Assembly: GCA_000165345.1 (NCBI GenBank)
Contig: CM000434.1
Span: forward strand, 640,001-704,000
Direction: 5' to 3'
Length of the DNA stretch: 64,000 nt
Every line of letters starts with the position of its first letter. The first letter of the stretch is position 1. Position numbers and translations under genes: made by a program. Of this stretch, positions 27,512 through 63,185 are shown in pieces. Under the pieces are notes generated by a model. It ran no database searches. It was not told the origin of the DNA and worked only from the letters and a program-made list of their open reading frames with translations.

Positions 27512-28835
27512 TTAATATAATGCTAAATACTTACTTTCTATATTTTGTTTTAAAATAATATCGGGAGGAAGTCTTTTAATTACTTTTAATATATAGTTTG
27601 TGATTCCCAGATAAGTAAACCAATGTTTGAATTTCTTAATCTGTTCAAATTTGAATTTTAATTCATCTTCACTGAGTGAGTTTAAAATATCGAATAAATC
27701 TTCAATCTGAGAGATATGGATAACTATTCCAAGTCTCTCCATTAAATTCCCATATGGAATCCAATTTACATCGTCCCAAATATATATTGGAATAGTTCCT
27801 AATTGAACTGATTCATATAGTCGAAAAGAAGTTCTTCCGAACCCTCTAGGACATAAATGAAAAGTTGAACGTTGAATTACTTGTTTGAACTGATCTCCTT
27901 GATAGTGAATAAATTGGTTTGTTACATTTTCTAAAACCTTAAAGGGGGTAATTTTATCCAACATTTCATCAGTCACATTATAATATGAAAAAGTCTCAAA
28001 TAATTTTTTCCTAACAGGGAAGTGTTTTTTAACAATAGTTGAAGATACCCAAATATCCTTTTTTGCTTTAAGTCCTTCATATTGAAGTTCGCCTTTAATT
28101 AATGGTATAGGAACTTGTTTAAATCCAGTGGTTGCTCCTCCAGCATTGAATACTATTAGATTTGACATGGACATAAATTTCAATTTAGACTTTTTAAATC
28201 CTTCTGCATCCTATATTGAGTTAGAGTTATAAAAATGATTGAATATTTGGAATAATACCAAATATTTTAAAGCTTACCTGTAGTACAGTAAAATACATTG
28301 TTTCATTTTTAAGTGAATTTAATACATCCTGAGCTTCTTTTTTCCATTCTTTCTTTAAATCAAGCTCAACCTTATTTCTATGAATTGAAGTCCAAAATAT
28401 TGGGATGTAAACTGGAGGAATAGGTTCAGATTCATTACATACTTTGATTTGTTTTGTTGAATACTGTGTAATCCAATTGCAAAAGACTCCATCTTCTATC
28501 CATGGTCCCATATATCCTGAATAGTTTGTATTTAGTCTAGGCCTTAAATTTTTGGTTAGGTTGAAAATTCGGATTTGTTCATCACTTAAACATATTTCTG
28601 TGGTATTATCTCTATTTTGTTTTGTTATATTTTGCAAGTTTATTTGATCCAAATTTCCATCAAAATTCAAATTGCAGTCCAAATAGTCAAACTGAGGATA
28701 GTTTTCCAGGAAGAAACTCCTTGGATTATTATTGCTAGGAAATTCTTGGATGTACAGGTAAATTATTATTCCACCGGTAATTATTAGCATGCATGCAAAT
28801 TCTAATAAAATTAGAAAATTGCATGACAATTTCAT
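27512..28835 (-). CDS. exostosin-like (GT47-type) type II membrane glycosyltransferase, 2 exons
   Basis: Exon 1 is 28835..28278 and begins with a signal-anchor (MKLSCNFLILLEFACMLIITGGIIIYLY). A 67-nt intron spans 28277..28211 (CAG|GTAAGC...ATATAG). Exon 2 is 28210..27512. The C-terminal FHLCPRGFGRTSFRLYESVQLGTIPIYIWDD matches the exostosin family signature. Confidence 0.6.
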
Positions 28836-29350
28836 TTTCTAATATTTTTTGGAAGAAAAAAATGATTTTTTTTTTAAGAAAAAAAAAAATTTAAATCTTT
28901 TTAGGAAAAATAATATCTCTTGCCACTGTCACTTTTATAACCTTTTCAGTATAATTTTATTCCTTTCTGAATCAATATTTAACTCAAACACTCTTTTCTT
29001 GAAGTTTAGAAATATCATCTACACTTTGTTCAATTACTCTTATTTTTCAAAAATATTATTTCTATATTCTAGAAATACTTCCAGTTCAATGCTTTAAAAT
29101 ATTTTGTTTCTTTTGAAATATTTTTTTTTAATTAAATTAATTTTTGTATTACGTGTCATATTATGATACCTTTTAGTAACGCGTACATGTAATCTTTAAA
29201 TATTATTTTTTCGAATTAATGTGGACGCCCCCAATTAATAAGGAAAAAAAAAATAAAATAAAAAAAATTTTAAAAAAATTTTAAATAAATAAAATTTAAT
29301 ATTTTAAAAATTCTACAAATTAATAGTGTTTGTGAAAGAATACTATTGAA

Positions 29351-30110
29351 ATGCAAAGCCAAGAAATGAGACCTTTGGAAACTTCATCAGAAAGATCTGG
29401 CGAGGTTGTGGGTAAGTTAAATTCCGTGCATACGTATGTGGGGTTAAAATAATTTACAAAAATCTCAGAAAATTCAACTAAAGCAATGGAAGTAAAATTA
29501 GAGGAGAACTCTGAGCCAATGACTCCGAACTATGTTGTTTTCTTAAGAGAACTATTTGTGGGAATGATTGGGGTGCATGCACTATATATTTTTGTAAATT
29601 TCATATTCAGGAACTACCCTGGTTCATTATTATCTCTATTACTGTAAGTTTAATAATATTAAGACATTTAATAATAAAATATTTATACTTTTTTTTAGTA
29701 CAATTTCTGCAATTTATACCCATTTTGACAGAAGAGTTGCGACTTATTCATTAAATACAGGTATAGAACTTCTATTGGGAATTACAATAGGATTGTCAGG
29801 TAAGTTATTTGGTTATTTTTAGTTAAAAATAGATTATTTATATTAATTTATCTTAACTTATAGTTTACTCTCCAGTCCAAGGTTTCGAAAAGTATTTTAA
29901 CGATTCAAACTTAAAGGTGAGTTAGGAAAAAGGATTTGAGTTTTTTTTTTAAAGAATTTCTAATTAAACTATTAATTTTAATCTATTTTACAGAGAGTAA
30001 CTCTTCCTCAACTTGTTTATTGTGCTTTATTTGCATTAATTTCCATTATTTTGGCACGTTTTGAGTACAAATTCAACCAGAAGAGAATAATTAATTCAAA
30101 AAGAACATGA
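29351..30110 (+). CDS. small multi-pass membrane protein (about 168 aa), 5 exons
   Basis: The exons are 29351..29411, 29469..29643, 29699..29799, 29864..29916 and 29994..30110. All four introns are GTAAGT or GTGAGT ... YAG and 55 to 77 nt long. The reading frame is continuous across all junctions. The product has hydrophobic helices (FVGMIGVHALYIFVNFIF, LLGITIGLSVY, LVYCALFALISIILA). It is not in the ORF track. Confidence 0.55.
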
Positions 30111-30220
30111 AATTATTTAAAACATCTTTTTTAATTTGTTTATTTAATTTTAATAAAAAAAATGGAAGAAGTCAATTGAATAAGTATTTAGTACGTGGAA
30201 GCTTGTTTATGTTACATGAC

Positions 30221-30253
30221 TTGCATGTAAAATTGCATGTAAACACCGGTATA
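30221..30253. promoter_or_regulatory. TTGCATGTAAAATTGCATGTAAACACCGGTATA promoter cluster
   Basis: 140 bp upstream of ATG 30394: two GCATGTAAA copies followed by ACCGGTAT. Confidence 0.45.
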
Positions 30254-30393
30254 TGAGTTTATTTACTAAATATTGACTAGTTATTAAGGATGATTAATTA
30301 ATTCTATAATTTCTTGAATAAAACATATATATATAATTTTTTTTTTGGAATAAAATTAGTTATTAGATTAGAATTGAATCTAAGTATTCGAGT

Positions 30394-31659
30394 ATGAACC
30401 TACATAATGATTTAACAAGTGGTAAAGCAGTAAAGTTCCAATTACTTGCCTTTGGATTGTCAATATTAATATTCATGGGAGGAACTTTTTATATGTTAAT
30501 AAATTCAAGCAGAAACCTTGAGAATGGAAAACAGAGAATTTTTCTCGAGTTAGAAGAGAAAGATATAACAAATCAAAAAAGCTTGGACGAATTAGATAAG
30601 CTAAATGACTCGATGCTCAGAATTTCACTTAAGTTGTCAGAAAGCAAAGATATGTTTGATACCATTGGTGCTTCAATTAATAAAATTGCCAAATATGTGG
30701 AAGCAAATGAAAAGAATATGACAGCAAAAGAATTTATTATTAAAGAAGAGTCAAAGAATGGCTTTGTTTTGGATTCAGTGTTGTTTCCATGTAAATATAG
30801 TTTTGATGGCCCGATATATATATTACTTACTACTACCCCAAAAAGAATTGATAACTTGGGTAAGTATTTGGACTTATTACATAAACAGACTTATGGGATT
30901 AAGGAAGTGATTTTATCCATTCCATACATTTTTGAAAGGACAGGAGAAGAGTATCCACCAATTCCAGGTTATTTGCAAGATAAAAATAGATTTCCTTTAC
31001 TGAGAATTTTAAGGGGAAAAGACTACGGTCCAGCAACAAAATTTCTATTACCAATAGAGATTGGGAATATTCCAGAAGATTCAGGACTGGTAATATTGGA
31101 TGATGATACAAGATATTCAAGACATCTAGTTTGCGATTATATTTATATACACGAAAAATTTCCAGAAGCAGCTTTAGGTAGAAGAGGACAGGCTTTTCAC
31201 GATAAATGCGATCCAACATATAGAACAGATAGAACTCACAGAGTAAGTCACGATCAAAAGAGTGCAAATTTTGTTATTAGAAGCGTAGATCTCCTGAGTG
31301 GAGTTGGAACATATTTTATTCAAAAAAAGTTCATTAGTAAGGATATTTTAACTCTAAAGAATAATTGTCCTACAGAAACTATCAATCATATGTTCTTTAC
31401 TGATGATATTTTGATTTCAGGTTATCTTGCATACAAGAACATTTCAAGGATTGCATTTTCAGATGAGCTTTCAATAGAAGATTTGAATCGACCATATTTG
31501 TTAGGATCTGGTCCTGGAGCTCTTTGGGATATTAATAAGGAAACCTTTCATAATGACAATAGTACAGCAGCATTTGGTTTATATTGGGGATGTAGGAACA
31601 AAGATACAATAGTAAGCAAGCATGGAGAGATACTTTGTAGGTGGAGAAACGAAGTTTGA
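30394..31659 (+). CDS. type II membrane protein, putative GT-A fold glycosyltransferase (DxD)
   Basis: 421 aa. An N-terminal TM anchor (FGLSILIFMGGTFYMLI) and a GLVILDDDTRY DxD-type motif are present. Confidence 0.5.
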   Translation: MNLHNDLTSGKAVKFQLLAFGLSILIFMGGTFYMLINSSRNLENGKQRIFLELEEKDITNQKSLDELDKLNDSMLRISLKLSESKDMFDTIGASINKIAKYVEANEKNMTAKEFIIKEESKNGFVLDSVLFPCKYSFDGPIYILLTTTPKRIDNLGKYLDLLHKQTYGIKEVILSIPYIFERTGEEYPPIPGYLQDKNRFPLLRILRGKDYGPATKFLLPIEIGNIPEDSGLVILDDDTRYSRHLVCDYIYIHEKFPEAALGRRGQAFHDKCDPTYRTDRTHRVSHDQKSANFVIRSVDLLSGVGTYFIQKKFISKDILTLKNNCPTETINHMFFTDDILISGYLAYKNISRIAFSDELSIEDLNRPYLLGSGPGALWDINKETFHNDNSTAAFGLYWGCRNKDTIVSKHGEILCRWRNEV

Positions 31660-45588: not shown

Positions 45589-46143
45589 TTTTTTTTAATT
45601 TTAATTGAATCTTAGTCAATTCGAGTTGTGTGTTTGAATTTACAAAATCTAATAGAGGTTGTTCGCTATAATAAGGATAAACGACTGTATGCCTTTGTTC
45701 CTTCGCAAATTTTCTTTCTGTTTACAATTTAAAGGCAATAATTAAATAAAAATCCAACTTTCTTTGTCAGATCTTTCTTTCTTTTTGTTTTACCCTGAAT
45801 CCTGGCATTTCTTAATTTTGTTTAATACCGGTATGTGAGCGTCTTGTCTACTGACTTTTAAAAATATTTATTAATGGCAGGAAAGAAATGGAATTTTGTT
45901 ATTGGGCGGGAATTGTTGGAAGTGGTGGGAAAATTGGTGTGTTAGGTATGAATTACGTGTTTGAGCGGCAATTTCATGCAAGTTAGGGTTGGATGGGGGG
46001 ACTAGAGGGAAGAGGGTGCGAATATGCAGTGGTTGTAGCAATACAGTGCATGCATGTGTTTACAATGAACATGTAGGGAAGAAGTGAAAAGAGAGGAGAG
46101 AAAAGGAGAGGAAAACGAGAGTAAAGAGATGAGGGGAGTGAGA

Positions 46144-46258: not shown

Positions 46259-47389
46259 TTACTTGGTGACTTTGAATGACTGAACAAGCTGTAAAAGCTC
46301 TTTGGCCCTAGGGTCAGTATTAAAATGGTCACGAATTGGTTGTAGCATAAGGTTCAAAGCGTCAGAAAGACCTTTTTTCAAATCACCAGGGTGAAGATCG
46401 CCACTAAGATAAGCCTTATGGAAATCTTCTTTATTGGTAAAGGTGATATCACCACCATACTCTTCTTTTCTAGAAACATGGAAATGACCGAATTTGGGGA
46501 ATACTAGAGTATTAATATATTCAATGCATGGATTTCCTTCAATAATGCCTGGAGGACAGAAAGCCTTTTTAATTTTTTTAACAACAGCTTCAGGAGTATC
46601 TTCAACAAATATTGCAGAAGAAGTGTCAGATTTTGACATTTTTTCTTGTCCTTCAAGTAACCCAGGAAGCATCTTATGGGAAAGGATTACAGGTTTATGT
46701 TTGATTCCAGCTGCATCACAGTATTCTCTAGCAAGCATGTTAACTTTTCTTTGATCCATACCTAACTGGCAAATATCTGCCTTGAGTTGGAATATATCAG
46801 CACATTGCATGCATGGATAAAATACTGAAGCACACGGTTGTTCATCATTTTCTTGTCTTCCCATAATTTGGCAACATCTTTTAATTCTAGTAATATTAAA
46901 CTTTCTAGAAATATCAAAAACTCTTAACCAATACTCATTAGAATCTTCCCCATTAATAAAATCAGATGCCCAAACAAATCTTACATTTGTCATATCCATT
47001 CCTGCAGCCTTCCATATGTGAACGAAATATTCACCAACAATCTTAATTTTTTCAAGATCACCACCCATCTTATTATTGAGCAGAGCAAACCAATCTGCTA
47101 CGTAGAATACAAAAACGCATCCGCATTCAGTTAACTTATTTACATTAATAGTCTTTAATATACATTGAGCAATATGCATTCTTCCTGAAGGTTCAAATCC
47201 ATCATAACAAATTGGATGTTCTTTTCTCTTTAATAATTCCAACAATTCTGCTTCTTGAATACATTCTTCACCAACTGATAAACATAACTTATGTCTTTCC
47301 TCCAAAGTTAACTTTGATCTTTTCAATGGCTCTTCACTTCCTTTCAAAATGTATTTGGGGATAGTTTCAGTACAACTATTAGATGACAT
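46259..47389 (-). CDS. tyrosyl-tRNA synthetase (class I, archaeal/eukaryotic type)
   Basis: 376 aa. CYDGFEPSGRMHIAQ corresponds to the HIGH region, a KMSKS motif is present, and AFCPPGIIEGNP resembles the TyrRS AYCP..EGNP segment. Confidence 0.85.
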   Translation of the reverse strand: MSSNSCTETIPKYILKGSEEPLKRSKLTLEERHKLCLSVGEECIQEAELLELLKRKEHPICYDGFEPSGRMHIAQCILKTINVNKLTECGCVFVFYVADWFALLNNKMGGDLEKIKIVGEYFVHIWKAAGMDMTNVRFVWASDFINGEDSNEYWLRVFDISRKFNITRIKRCCQIMGRQENDEQPCASVFYPCMQCADIFQLKADICQLGMDQRKVNMLAREYCDAAGIKHKPVILSHKMLPGLLEGQEKMSKSDTSSAIFVEDTPEAVVKKIKKAFCPPGIIEGNPCIEYINTLVFPKFGHFHVSRKEEYGGDITFTNKEDFHKAYLSGDLHPGDLKKGLSDALNLMLQPIRDHFNTDPRAKELLQLVQSFKVTK

Positions 47390-48070: not shown

Positions 48071-48958
48071 ATGCAAAAGTCATTGTCTATACATAAGCAT
48101 AAGATGGTGTTAAAGTTATTATTAACATCACTTTTGGGATTATTAAATATTATTGTGTGGGCCAATGGAGAAGAGCGAGAACCATTTTGTTTGGAGATTT
48201 ACGACAATAAAAATGATGAAAAGCATCTCCCATACTATTTCTTGAACGAGTTCCCAATCTGTAAAGAGCATGAAAGACGAACTTGCTGTAAAAAAAGTCA
48301 TTCTGAGGCAATTTCAAGACTTTTCTCAACATTAGTAGCAAGATCATCCCTTTCTACCAGATGTTCAAACTTTTACCAAAAGTCTTTATGTTCATACTGT
48401 GATGCAGATATAGGTGTTGGAAAAAAAGTTATACAGAAATCCCCAATCCTTTGTCAATCTTACTGTAACCTATGGTATGATGCTTGCTACGAAGATTACT
48501 TTGATAATATACAAAACTCCTATATACGAAATATTGAAGATATATCTTTTATTCGATTAAATCTTATTCCCTGTACGGATTCATCAGCTATTTGTTCCCC
48601 TTTACATGCAATTACATTAGACCCTACAGAGTTTTGTTCCTTAAATGGGTTCTCCACTCATCAAGATTTTCATTCATCATCAGGGCCTGCAAGTCTCACT
48701 GAGTACAATACAGAATGTTTTAATGGTATTCCGGCAGCTTCGGTTCTTAAACCTGGAATTAGACAAAAGACCCAAAGTTACAAATATAAAAGATCGCAGT
48801 ATAGTAAAAAGCCAAAGGCTAAAAACAAATTTTATCAAATTATTCAGGATCATATTAACGTTTTCTTGGAAAACGTTAAGGTTCCTTTACCTGTTATTGT
48901 CTTTATTTCTATCATTTCGATTTGGATTATTAACCAAGTCATAAACTTTTTTATCTAG
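48071..48958 (+). CDS. cysteine-rich secreted/membrane protein
   Basis: 295 aa with an N-terminal signal peptide, more than 16 Cys including CC pairs, and a C-terminal hydrophobic segment (VIVFISIISIWIINQVINFFI) consistent with a TM or GPI signal. Confidence 0.5.
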   Translation: MQKSLSIHKHKMVLKLLLTSLLGLLNIIVWANGEEREPFCLEIYDNKNDEKHLPYYFLNEFPICKEHERRTCCKKSHSEAISRLFSTLVARSSLSTRCSNFYQKSLCSYCDADIGVGKKVIQKSPILCQSYCNLWYDACYEDYFDNIQNSYIRNIEDISFIRLNLIPCTDSSAICSPLHAITLDPTEFCSLNGFSTHQDFHSSSGPASLTEYNTECFNGIPAASVLKPGIRQKTQSYKYKRSQYSKKPKAKNKFYQIIQDHINVFLENVKVPLPVIVFISIISIWIINQVINFFI

Positions 48959-54366: not shown

Positions 54367-55286
54367 ATCTAGAGATTCTGAGTCTTTTTTTTTGCTACTA
54401 GAAGTGTTATAACACTAGATTTTTTTTTATTTCTACGCTTGTTTTAACTTTTTCCATTGCTTTTCTAAATTAGTGTAATACAAATCTTGATTGCTTCTAG
54501 AATCAATGTGTAAATTTCTCTCTTCACTCCTTTATATGCGTTTCGAATGGTTTTTACCACTATTGTTATTAATGCAACTACTACTACTACTGATCCCGGT
54601 TCATCAAGAGTTTGAAACAATGTCTTTAATCATTATCGTCACATTAAATAAACATTACTTTATATATAGAGAGCGCGCACATGCATGTAAAATTTCAAGT
54701 GCATGCAAATTGTCAAAATCTGTGAAAGTTAACTAATAAGAAAGAAAACATATCCTAATTAAAATTTACTTAATCTAGATACACAGCCTAATCCAATTCA
54801 CTGCAACTTTTTAATTAAACAAATACACTCATTAATTTTTTTTTTTTTTTTTTTGCTACTAAAAATAAAACCATTATTTTTCTTAAATTCATCATTACTA
54901 ATGTGTCCACATAAATTGACAAATGCAATTATAAAAATTACATGATGTTGGCGCCCAACACGTAATCTAAATTAAAAAAATGGGGAAATATAAGTAATTA
55001 ATGCTAAATAGATAGAGGGGAAATTATATGGGGAAAAGTCAGGACAAAATTTACATGGAAAATTTGAGAAAAAATATTTGAAAAATAAACGCTTTTAAGT
55101 AATTGATTTTTTTTTTAAAGTGTTTATTAAAATCAAGAGTATTATATTCATGCTAACTAAGGAAATATATTGTATAAATAGTACCAAAGAAGTGAATAAT
55201 ATATTTGAATTGGCAAGATAAATAAAAAGATATTTATCCAAAAAAAAAAATTAAAGTGGAAGAGTGAGAGAAAACTTGAGGAAAAA

Positions 55287-62866: not shown

Positions 62867-63185
62867 TTATATTAGATCACGAGGAAAGTATTGTCTTAAT
62901 GGATCTAAAAATGATTGGAATATAAACAAAAGAAGGGCTTAGAGAGCGAACCAAAGTTGTGTTTTTATAAGGGATTCTTCGGAAACTGGGAATTTAGATT
63001 TTCTAAGAACTTATTTTTTTTTTTATTTTAAAACTTTCAAGGTTGAAGAGACTGAAGAAATATTCAGAACTAAACTCTTAACCTCTGTTAAGAAAGAAAT
63101 CTAAATTAGTAAAAAAGCAAGAAAATTCACGATTATAGTAAGAAGATCATCAGATTACTCATTTATTAATTTGGAGTTATCGAAA

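Follow-up and report, generated by a model that had tools for sequence, protein, structure and literature searches.

Two adjacent genes of Cryptosporidium parvum chromosome 6 are examined here as candidate glycosyltransferases of the female stage, together with a third gene that lies between them. The window analysed is a stretch of 64,000 nucleotides (nt) from GenBank assembly GCA_000165345.1 (contig CM000434.1, positions 640,001 to 704,000 of the forward strand), AT-rich with a GC content of 26-43% across its length, and all coordinates given below are positions within it unless another locus is named. The genes, designated G1, G2 and G3, occupy 4 kb (27512-31659), and all three were recovered at the coordinates at which a first-pass annotation, made from the sequence alone, had placed them as genes for membrane-anchored proteins. 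Their translated products are identical to deposited C. parvum chromosome 6 proteins (G1 to CAD98579.1 and QOY41174.1; G2 to QOY41175.1; G3 to EAK89924.1, Q5CX14), so that the gene models proposed in that annotation proved exact. Open reading frames (ORFs) further downstream in the window carry Bax1-I and class-I Tyr/Trp-tRNA-synthetase domains and fit cgd6_2960 and cgd6_2970 of a published table, which places the locus at cgd6_2900-2920 of chromosome 6.

Gene models and their annotation

Coordinates of the genes, exons, motifs and spacers are collected in Table 1. G1 is annotated in two conflicting ways: the Iowa II annotation and GCA_031892065.1 divide it into two genes (a 220-amino-acid (aa) 'exostosin-like' protein from exon 2 and a 202-aa hypothetical protein from exon 1), whereas CPATCC and CAD98579.1 annotate a single spliced protein of 418 aa. 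The 220-aa exon-2 piece is cgd6_2900 of the old annotation ('exostosin-like protein'). The spliced form of G1 aligns without a break across the exon junction (YFTVLQ | ...G...) with intron-less bacterial homologues, and C. muris has the same division of G1 and the same exon blocks in G2. The four introns of G2 are 55-77 nt long and every one follows the pattern GT[AG]AGT...YAG; the locus tags of this gene (6g2915 and 6002913) fall numerically between 2910 and 2920. The spacer between G1 and G2 is presumably a promoter region common to both genes.

A multi-pass fusion of G2 and G3 was considered, as it is represented by a C. hominis protein of 559 aa (OLQ16432.1) in which G2 exons 1-4 (donor 29917) are spliced in frame to an acceptor site that precedes the G3 ATG by 27 nt, adding the residues IRIESKYSS. 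In the window the acceptor AG lies at 30364-30365 and the next 27 nt are in frame with G3. The fusion is probably an artefact, because stop codons directly precede the ATG of G3 in C. muris and make this geometry impossible there.

Table 1. Positions in the window of the three genes, their parts and motifs, and of TGCATG sites.
Feature	Position	Strand	Description
G1 exon 1	28835..28278	minus	residues 1-186; signal-anchor and N-terminal half of GT47 domain
G1 signal-anchor	28749-28817	minus	residues 7-29
G1 intron	28277..28211	minus	67 nt, GTAAGC...ATATAG
G1 exon 2	28210..27512	minus	residues 187-418 and stop; C-terminal, nucleotide-sugar-binding half of GT47 domain
G1 motif CPRGFGRTSFRLYE	27812-27853	minus	in exon 2
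G1 motif IPIYIWDD	27770-27793	minus	in exon 2
G1-G2 spacer	28836..29350		515 bp, AT-rich; G1 and G2 transcribed divergently from either side
G2 exons	29351-29411, 29469-29643, 29699-29799, 29864-29916, 29994-30110	plus	168 aa
G2-G3 spacer	30111..30393		contains tandem TTGCATGTAAA pair at 30222-30239
G3 (cgd6_2920)	30394..31659	plus	single exon, 421 aa, annotated "hypothetical"
G3 signal-anchor	30436-30504	plus	residues 15-37
G3 GT-A catalytic domain, start	30781	plus	from about residue 130; helical stem before it, about residues 40-120
G3 motif LTTTPKR	30826-30846	plus	family motif
G3 motif DYGPATK	31021-31041	plus	family motif
G3 motif DDD	31099-31107	plus	family motif, inside VILDDDTRY (31090-31116)
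G3 motif TDD	~31399-31407	plus	family motif
TGCATG sites near G1 5' end	28788-28825		just inside G1
Tandem TTGCATGTAAA	30222 and 30234		in G2-G3 spacer
Further TGCATG sites	46047-46056, 46806-46815, 54680-54707		elsewhere in window

Family relationships of the three products

By its sequence, G1 belongs to the GT47/exostosin family and has the architecture of a type II membrane protein; its exostosin annotation is already in public records. In the 418-aa product one hydrophobic segment lies near the N terminus (residues 7-29), and there are eight N-glycosylation sequons. It matches Pfam family PF03016 over residues 284-364 with 36.3 bits (gathering cut-off, 33.4), PF03016 is present in the precomputed annotation of all G1 orthologues, and a match to RXYLT1_C lies slightly under threshold. 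A family profile built from 54 homologues matches the GT47 domain of EXT1 (residues 204-392) with an E-value of 5.9e-19, EXT2 at 2.9e-13, EXTL3 at 1.9e-10 and the chlorovirus protein A075L at 4.5e-6. Residues P307, G309, S314 and E319, which belong to the PRG...S.R..E nucleotide-sugar motif, are invariant in the 54 homologues; CPRGFGRTSFRLYE and IPIYIWDD, the signature on which the first-pass annotation had based its call of a two-exon exostosin-like enzyme, are both present, and the N-terminal half of the GT47 domain contributes the exon 1 motifs GPWIE, PIFWT and YFTVLQ. G1 is the only exostosin-like gene detected in the parasite. Outside Cryptosporidium its nearest relatives are bacterial (cyanobacterial) and metagenomic proteins of about 250-410 aa, and all three of the prokaryotic G1-like loci inspected lie in large polysaccharide-synthesis clusters with many glycosyltransferases, methyltransferases and acyltransferases. 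Sugar donors vary across GT47 and include glucuronic acid (GlcA), galactose, galacturonic acid, xylose and arabinose.

G2 is a four-helix membrane protein confined to Cryptosporidium and tied to G1 and G3 by its genus-wide position alone. Two of the four predicted helices are strongly hydrophobic, the core YTHFDRRVATYSLN...ELLLG is strongly conserved and invariant among Cryptosporidium orthologues, and sequence searches found homologues in this genus only. No family match was obtained by Pfam or by fold comparison, as the first-pass annotation had anticipated in describing a five-exon, 168-aa membrane protein to which it could assign no family. Its further proposal, that G2 resembles the accessory subunits of glycosyltransferases, found no support, in that G2 is unlike the known small subunits with which it was compared (e.g. 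DPM2/3, OST4/5, PIG-Y and TMEM258) in both sequence and fold. Several deposited G2 orthologues (one C. meleagridis record, C. ubiquitum and C. muris) are apparently truncated to 96-132 aa, with the last exon gone.

G3 is clearly a type II glycosyltransferase with a predicted GT-A DxD domain, and it is missed by present annotation. Its topology comprises a signal-anchor, a long helical stem and a catalytic domain in which six cysteines are invariant or nearly so across orthologues; the transmembrane segment at residues 15-37 and the VILDDDTRY stretch agree with the first-pass description of a type II protein with a DxD motif. G3 has the features of a GT-A fold with an Asp-rich (DDD) site for metal and nucleotide. 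Neither G3 nor any of seven orthologues matches a Pfam family, even at E<=10, and no NCBIfam model covers the family. The GT2 family (PF00535) does not match G3 itself, and its single-domain relatives score 13-21 bits against a cut-off of 23.3, around the DxD strand. Glycosyltransferase-family matches for the two larger proteins, on which the first-pass annotation had staked its reading, were therefore found for G1 (GT47) and not, in Pfam, for G3, which is nevertheless clearly a glycosyltransferase. One deposited G3 orthologue, from C. felis, is 382 aa long, has no N-terminal anchor and is apparently truncated.

The extent of the G3 family became visible in profile searches. While a word-indexed search with G3 returned Cryptosporidium species, the chromerid Vitrella, one weak metagenomic match and nothing else, an exhaustive search with a profile of the catalytic domain collected 4618 representatives at E<=1e-3, in the order Vitrella, Chromera and then chiefly single-domain proteins of 240-320 aa. 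That the nearest relatives are chromerid argues for an old eukaryotic residence of the gene over a recent transfer. Eleven residues (P149, R151, P177, D210, G212, P213, K216, D236, D237, D337 and D338) are invariant in 60 family members and form the motifs TTxPxR, DyGPaTK, DDD and xDD. When the family profile was compared with all Protein Data Bank (PDB) sequences, the only significant matches were PmHS2 of Pasteurella (residues 276-523, 6e-16) and KfiA of Escherichia coli K5 (8e-9), the next best having E=0.41; a narrow profile of Cryptosporidium and chromerid sequences matched PmHS2 only (4.9e-4), and the G3 sequence used singly gave no match. The motifs xPxR, D..GK, DDDxxYP, GxxG, GTG and xD are colinear between the G3 family and PmHS2/KfiA, with TTxPxR answering to S(Y/I)P(P/S)R, DyGPaTK to D..(V/N)GKF and DDDxxYp to DDDIIYP. 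G3 differs from both bacterial enzymes in its eukaryotic type II anchor, helical stem and six conserved cysteines, and the relationship is distant. As judged from these comparisons, the G3 family is sizeable and lacks a Pfam or NCBIfam model, and structures exist for only two of its relatives, the alpha-1,4-N-acetylglucosamine (GlcNAc) transferases KfiA and PmHS2 (C-terminal half).

The matched C-terminal half of PmHS2 is its GlcNAc-transferase site, and this transferase and KfiA belong to CAZy family GT45. GT45 was too small for clustering in 2019, and the contrast between 4618 representatives and so small a family suggests that G3 belongs to a sister or unclassified family, and not to GT45 proper. 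PmHS2 has both GlcA- and GlcNAc-transferase activities (PMC3418500), and the title of Hodson 2000, as given in the reference list of the same paper, describes KfiA as an alpha-UDP-GlcNAc transferase. A different identity is implied by the UniRef name of the C. hominis orthologue (A0A0S4TGX6), 'Glycosyl transferase 64 domain-containing protein'. This GT64 assignment was rejected as irreproducible, since neither G3 nor its orthologues match GT64 (PF09258) or any other Pfam-A family at E<=10 and the PDB profile search reaches no GT64 structures. GT64 is the GlcNAc-transferase domain of exostosins.

Female expression and oocyst-wall fractionation

Published stage-specific data tie G1 and G3 to the female stage. 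In sorted-cell RNA sequencing (Tandel et al. 2019, PMC6877471, supplementary file 4), mean log2 counts per million (CPM) for cgd6_2900, cgd6_2910 and cgd6_2920 are 1.44, 0.96 and 1.36 in asexual stages, 5.67, 5.31 and 5.33 in cultured females, and 6.39, 6.05 and 3.87 in females from mice, with log fold changes between female and asexual stages of 4.23, 4.35 and 3.97, respectively (about 16-fold). Fractionation data point the same way: a hyperLOPIT 'oocyst wall' list of 44 C. parvum genes, taken from the analysis code of Tandel et al. 2023 (PMC10233709), holds both cgd6_2900 and cgd6_2920, together with cgd6_2090 (COWP1) and the pyruvyl transferase cgd6_1450. No polysaccharide of the oocyst wall has been identified and the genome has no chitin or glucan synthase; glycosyltransferases are expressed by females in large number, as are two polysaccharide pyruvyl transferases and the UDP-glucose dehydrogenase cgd8_920 (PMC6877471). 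We found no mention of cgd6_2900, cgd6_2910 or cgd6_2920 in the main text of published papers, nor are the genes of G1 and G3 mentioned in a 2022 genome-based reconstruction of Cryptosporidium glycosylation.

The window contains 41 copies of TGCATG, where 20.8 +/- 4.5 would be expected; this hexamer is the core of an apicomplexan AP2-type element, TGCATGCA. Eight copies fall within 1.45 kb (28788-30239), at the 5' end of G1, in G2 exon 2 and in the G2-G3 spacer, and in C. muris ACATGCATGCATGTA lies about 65 nt upstream of the ATG of the G3 orthologue. It is possible, on this distribution, that the TGCATG copies form a common cis-element for female expression.

Proposed function and alternative explanations

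We favour, as somewhat probable, the interpretation that G1 and G3 are a macrogamete secretory-pathway pair of glycosyltransferases working on oocyst-wall material. The two enzymes would act in succession in the secretory pathway of the macrogamete and build a glycan on material bound for the oocyst wall. Going by family membership, G1 would, like other GT47 enzymes, transfer a sugar from a UDP-sugar with inversion to form a beta linkage. G3 would, like GT45 enzymes, use a metal-DxD site and act with retention to attach, in an alpha linkage, what is most likely an N-acetylhexosamine (HexNAc). A plausible donor for G1 is UDP-GlcA supplied by the female-induced UDP-glucose dehydrogenase cgd8_920, and the pair might thereby account for a supply of this nucleotide sugar that is otherwise unexplained in the parasite. 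The link between G1 and G3 rests on the external expression and fractionation data and not on adjacency, and G2 stands outside this evidence. The first-pass proposal of a single functional module embracing three genes is accordingly retained for G1 and G3, which are female-induced and share the oocyst-wall list, but not for G2, which is connected by position.

A number of observations weigh against a functional pairing of G1 and G3, or against the activities assigned to them. Gene order is kept in C. muris, and the C. ubiquitum tags 02418-02420 are consecutive; Cryptosporidium genomes are largely colinear, however, which makes synteny inside the genus weakly informative. The adjacency that the first-pass annotation expected to be conserved is thus kept within Cryptosporidium and not conserved beyond it: the G3 homologue of Vitrella brassicaformis has no GT47 neighbour, the three prokaryotic G1-like loci contain no G3-like gene, and no G1-G3 fusion was found among 246 sampled proteins. 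Because the G2 tags fall between 2910 and 2920 and G1 is split in older annotations, cgd6_2910 is most likely exon 1 of G1 and not G2, and G1 has probably been counted twice in expression tables that list cgd6_2900 and cgd6_2910 separately; the equation of cgd6_2910 with G2, which would have made G2 co-expressed, was rejected on account of the same tags and of the split of G1 into 220-aa and 202-aa products. A membrane-anchored glycosyltransferase might also enter the oocyst-wall fraction with residual bodies or with membranes that sediment alongside, and need not reside in the wall. As for activity, donor and acceptor of both enzymes are assigned by analogy with distant relatives, G3 lies at the margin of GT45 (61.6 bits for PmHS2 and 38 for KfiA, where ordinary family members reach 110-140), and the AlphaFold2 model of G3 is poor beyond residues 130-260 (mean predicted local distance difference test score, 57).

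That G1 and G3 are unrelated neighbours, serving separate glycans or with one of them catalytically dead, and that their proximity and female expression merely reflect a compact genome and a large female programme, we regard as unlikely. Three genes in 4 kb is an ordinary density for this genome, and by a rough estimate two adjacent glycosyltransferases are not in themselves beyond chance; many genes are differentially expressed, and the linkage is not conserved outside the genus. These points have to be set against the presence of both genes on the 44-gene oocyst-wall list, for which the chance, with about 3900 genes in the C. parvum genome, is about (44/3900)^2 for two given genes. Both proteins, moreover, retain the invariant catalytic motifs of their families. 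As for the adjoining gene tags, cgd6_2930 is not in the supplementary files of PMC6877471 that were searched, and the rows beside the trio in the differential-expression table are cgd6_2860 and cgd6_2960.

The alternative raised by the first-pass annotation, in which the trio elongates mucin-type O-glycans of sporozoite or merozoite mucins with G2 as an accessory subunit, appears least probable of those considered and would be surprising. A signal-peptide-bearing, Pro/Thr-rich gene does begin near 63185, at the right end of the window, and is an example of the substrate proposed; in addition, a 2026 review places glycosyltransferases and mucins together in the second wave of female expression, which makes female-stage mucins possible acceptors. 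The suggestion of mucin-type substrates like this gene (given as 63186) is nonetheless unsupported, because asexual stages contain hardly any G1 or G3 transcript (log2 CPM of about 1-1.4). The 2022 reconstruction arrived at mainly single-HexNAc O-glycans with no further Golgi processing, G2 is unlike any known subunit, and no expression data tie it to G1 and G3.

A more specific version of the favoured pairing can be drawn from known heparan sulfate and heparosan systems. EXT1/EXT2, the animal heparan sulfate co-polymerase, combines GT47 and GT64 domains; G1 resembles it in its C-terminal GT47 domain with PRG....SFR..E and in its type II membrane architecture, and the locus as a whole pairs a GT47 enzyme with a GT-A relative of alpha-GlcNAc transferases, echoing the two domains of one EXT chain. 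In Cryptosporidium, by contrast, the two enzymes have a gene each, an unrelated gene lies in between, and G1 has only 418 aa. The locus might on this analogy encode a 'split, hybrid exostosin', in which G1 as a beta-1,4-GlcA transferase of GT47 type and G3 as a GT45-like alpha-1,4-GlcNAc transferase would alternate to polymerise a heparosan-like acidic GlcA-GlcNAc chain on oocyst-wall proteins in the macrogamete. Its donor would be supplied by cgd8_920, the chain might be decorated by the female-specific pyruvyl transferases, and the product would be the structural carbohydrate of the oocyst wall. Attractive features of this model are that the GT47 domain of EXT1 is the best solved relative of G1, that two bacterial heparosan GlcNAc transferases are the only solved relatives of G3, that known heparosan systems combine one enzyme per activity (PMC3418500), and that cgd8_920 is female-induced while no UDP-GlcA-using enzyme is named in the glycosylation literature searched. 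The UniRef GT64 name of the C. hominis G3 orthologue would also agree with it, were it reproducible with Pfam-A or the PDB profile search. Both family relationships are distant, however, and donor specificity varies across GT47; literature searches found no uronic-acid polymer in Cryptosporidium, and the pairing of GT47-like and G3-type genes is not recurrent elsewhere. We therefore hold the heparosan-like chain to be a doubtful proposal, with a rather small chance of being correct in this form.

Other systems bear on the pairing of G1 and G3 in a more general way. The PBCV-1 protein A075L, which is presumably a small exostosin-like enzyme with beta-xylosyltransferase activity, is like G1 a small single-domain GT47-like protein; EXT1 stands nearer to G1 than this viral protein does. 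The literature searched gave no sign that Cryptosporidium makes UDP-xylose, and the word 'xylose' is absent from PMC9713705. Giant-virus glycosylation islands are a further comparison, G3-like genes being common in giant-virus metagenome-assembled genomes: viral contigs (IMG/VR) yielded 142 G3 relatives, many of them in such genomes, and 79 loci (L009-L087) were retrieved. A scan of bacterial genomes with the narrow G3 profile gave one locus. A GT47-like ORF lies within 10 kb of the G3-like gene in 9 of the 80 viral or bacterial loci, which, as there is no baseline for this frequency, is anecdotal support only. One strong adjacent case (locus L047, 6376-8974) is a tight three-glycosyltransferase island in which a G3-like gene and a GT47-like gene, about 0.7 kb apart, are accompanied by a gene for a 258-aa DxD protein. 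Bacterial capsule and extracellular polysaccharide clusters, such as the kfi region and cyanobacterial loci, provide a further parallel, in that Cryptosporidium females likewise express UDP-glucose dehydrogenase and two capsule-type polysaccharide pyruvyl transferases; the Cryptosporidium genes differ in having spliceosomal introns, in being monocistronic and in the Golgi-type anchoring of their products. At the Vitrella brassicaformis locus (L001, 13619-15509), the gene downstream of the G3 homologue has Epimerase and NAD_binding_4 domains and may or may not be related to sugar nucleotides.

The oocyst wall is the basis of the chlorine resistance and water-borne spread of Cryptosporidium. What is new here is that G3 is recognised as a glycosyltransferase, is paired with G1, and is tied with it to published stage and fractionation data; cgd6_2920 and the neighbouring exostosin-like gene are thereby two genetically tractable candidates for wall-glycan synthesis.

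Elsewhere in the window, the gene at ~63185-64000, which runs past the window end, encodes a signal peptide (MKVNRLFSPIGIFIAILLVNSFG) followed by mucin-like Pro/Thr/Val/Ala-rich repeats (VSPPTTQT.TSVAVPT...); no link to the glycosyltransferases was found. A 295-aa ORF at 48071-48958 on the plus strand matches Folate_rec (PF03024) with E=3.9e-22, an unexpected family for this parasite.

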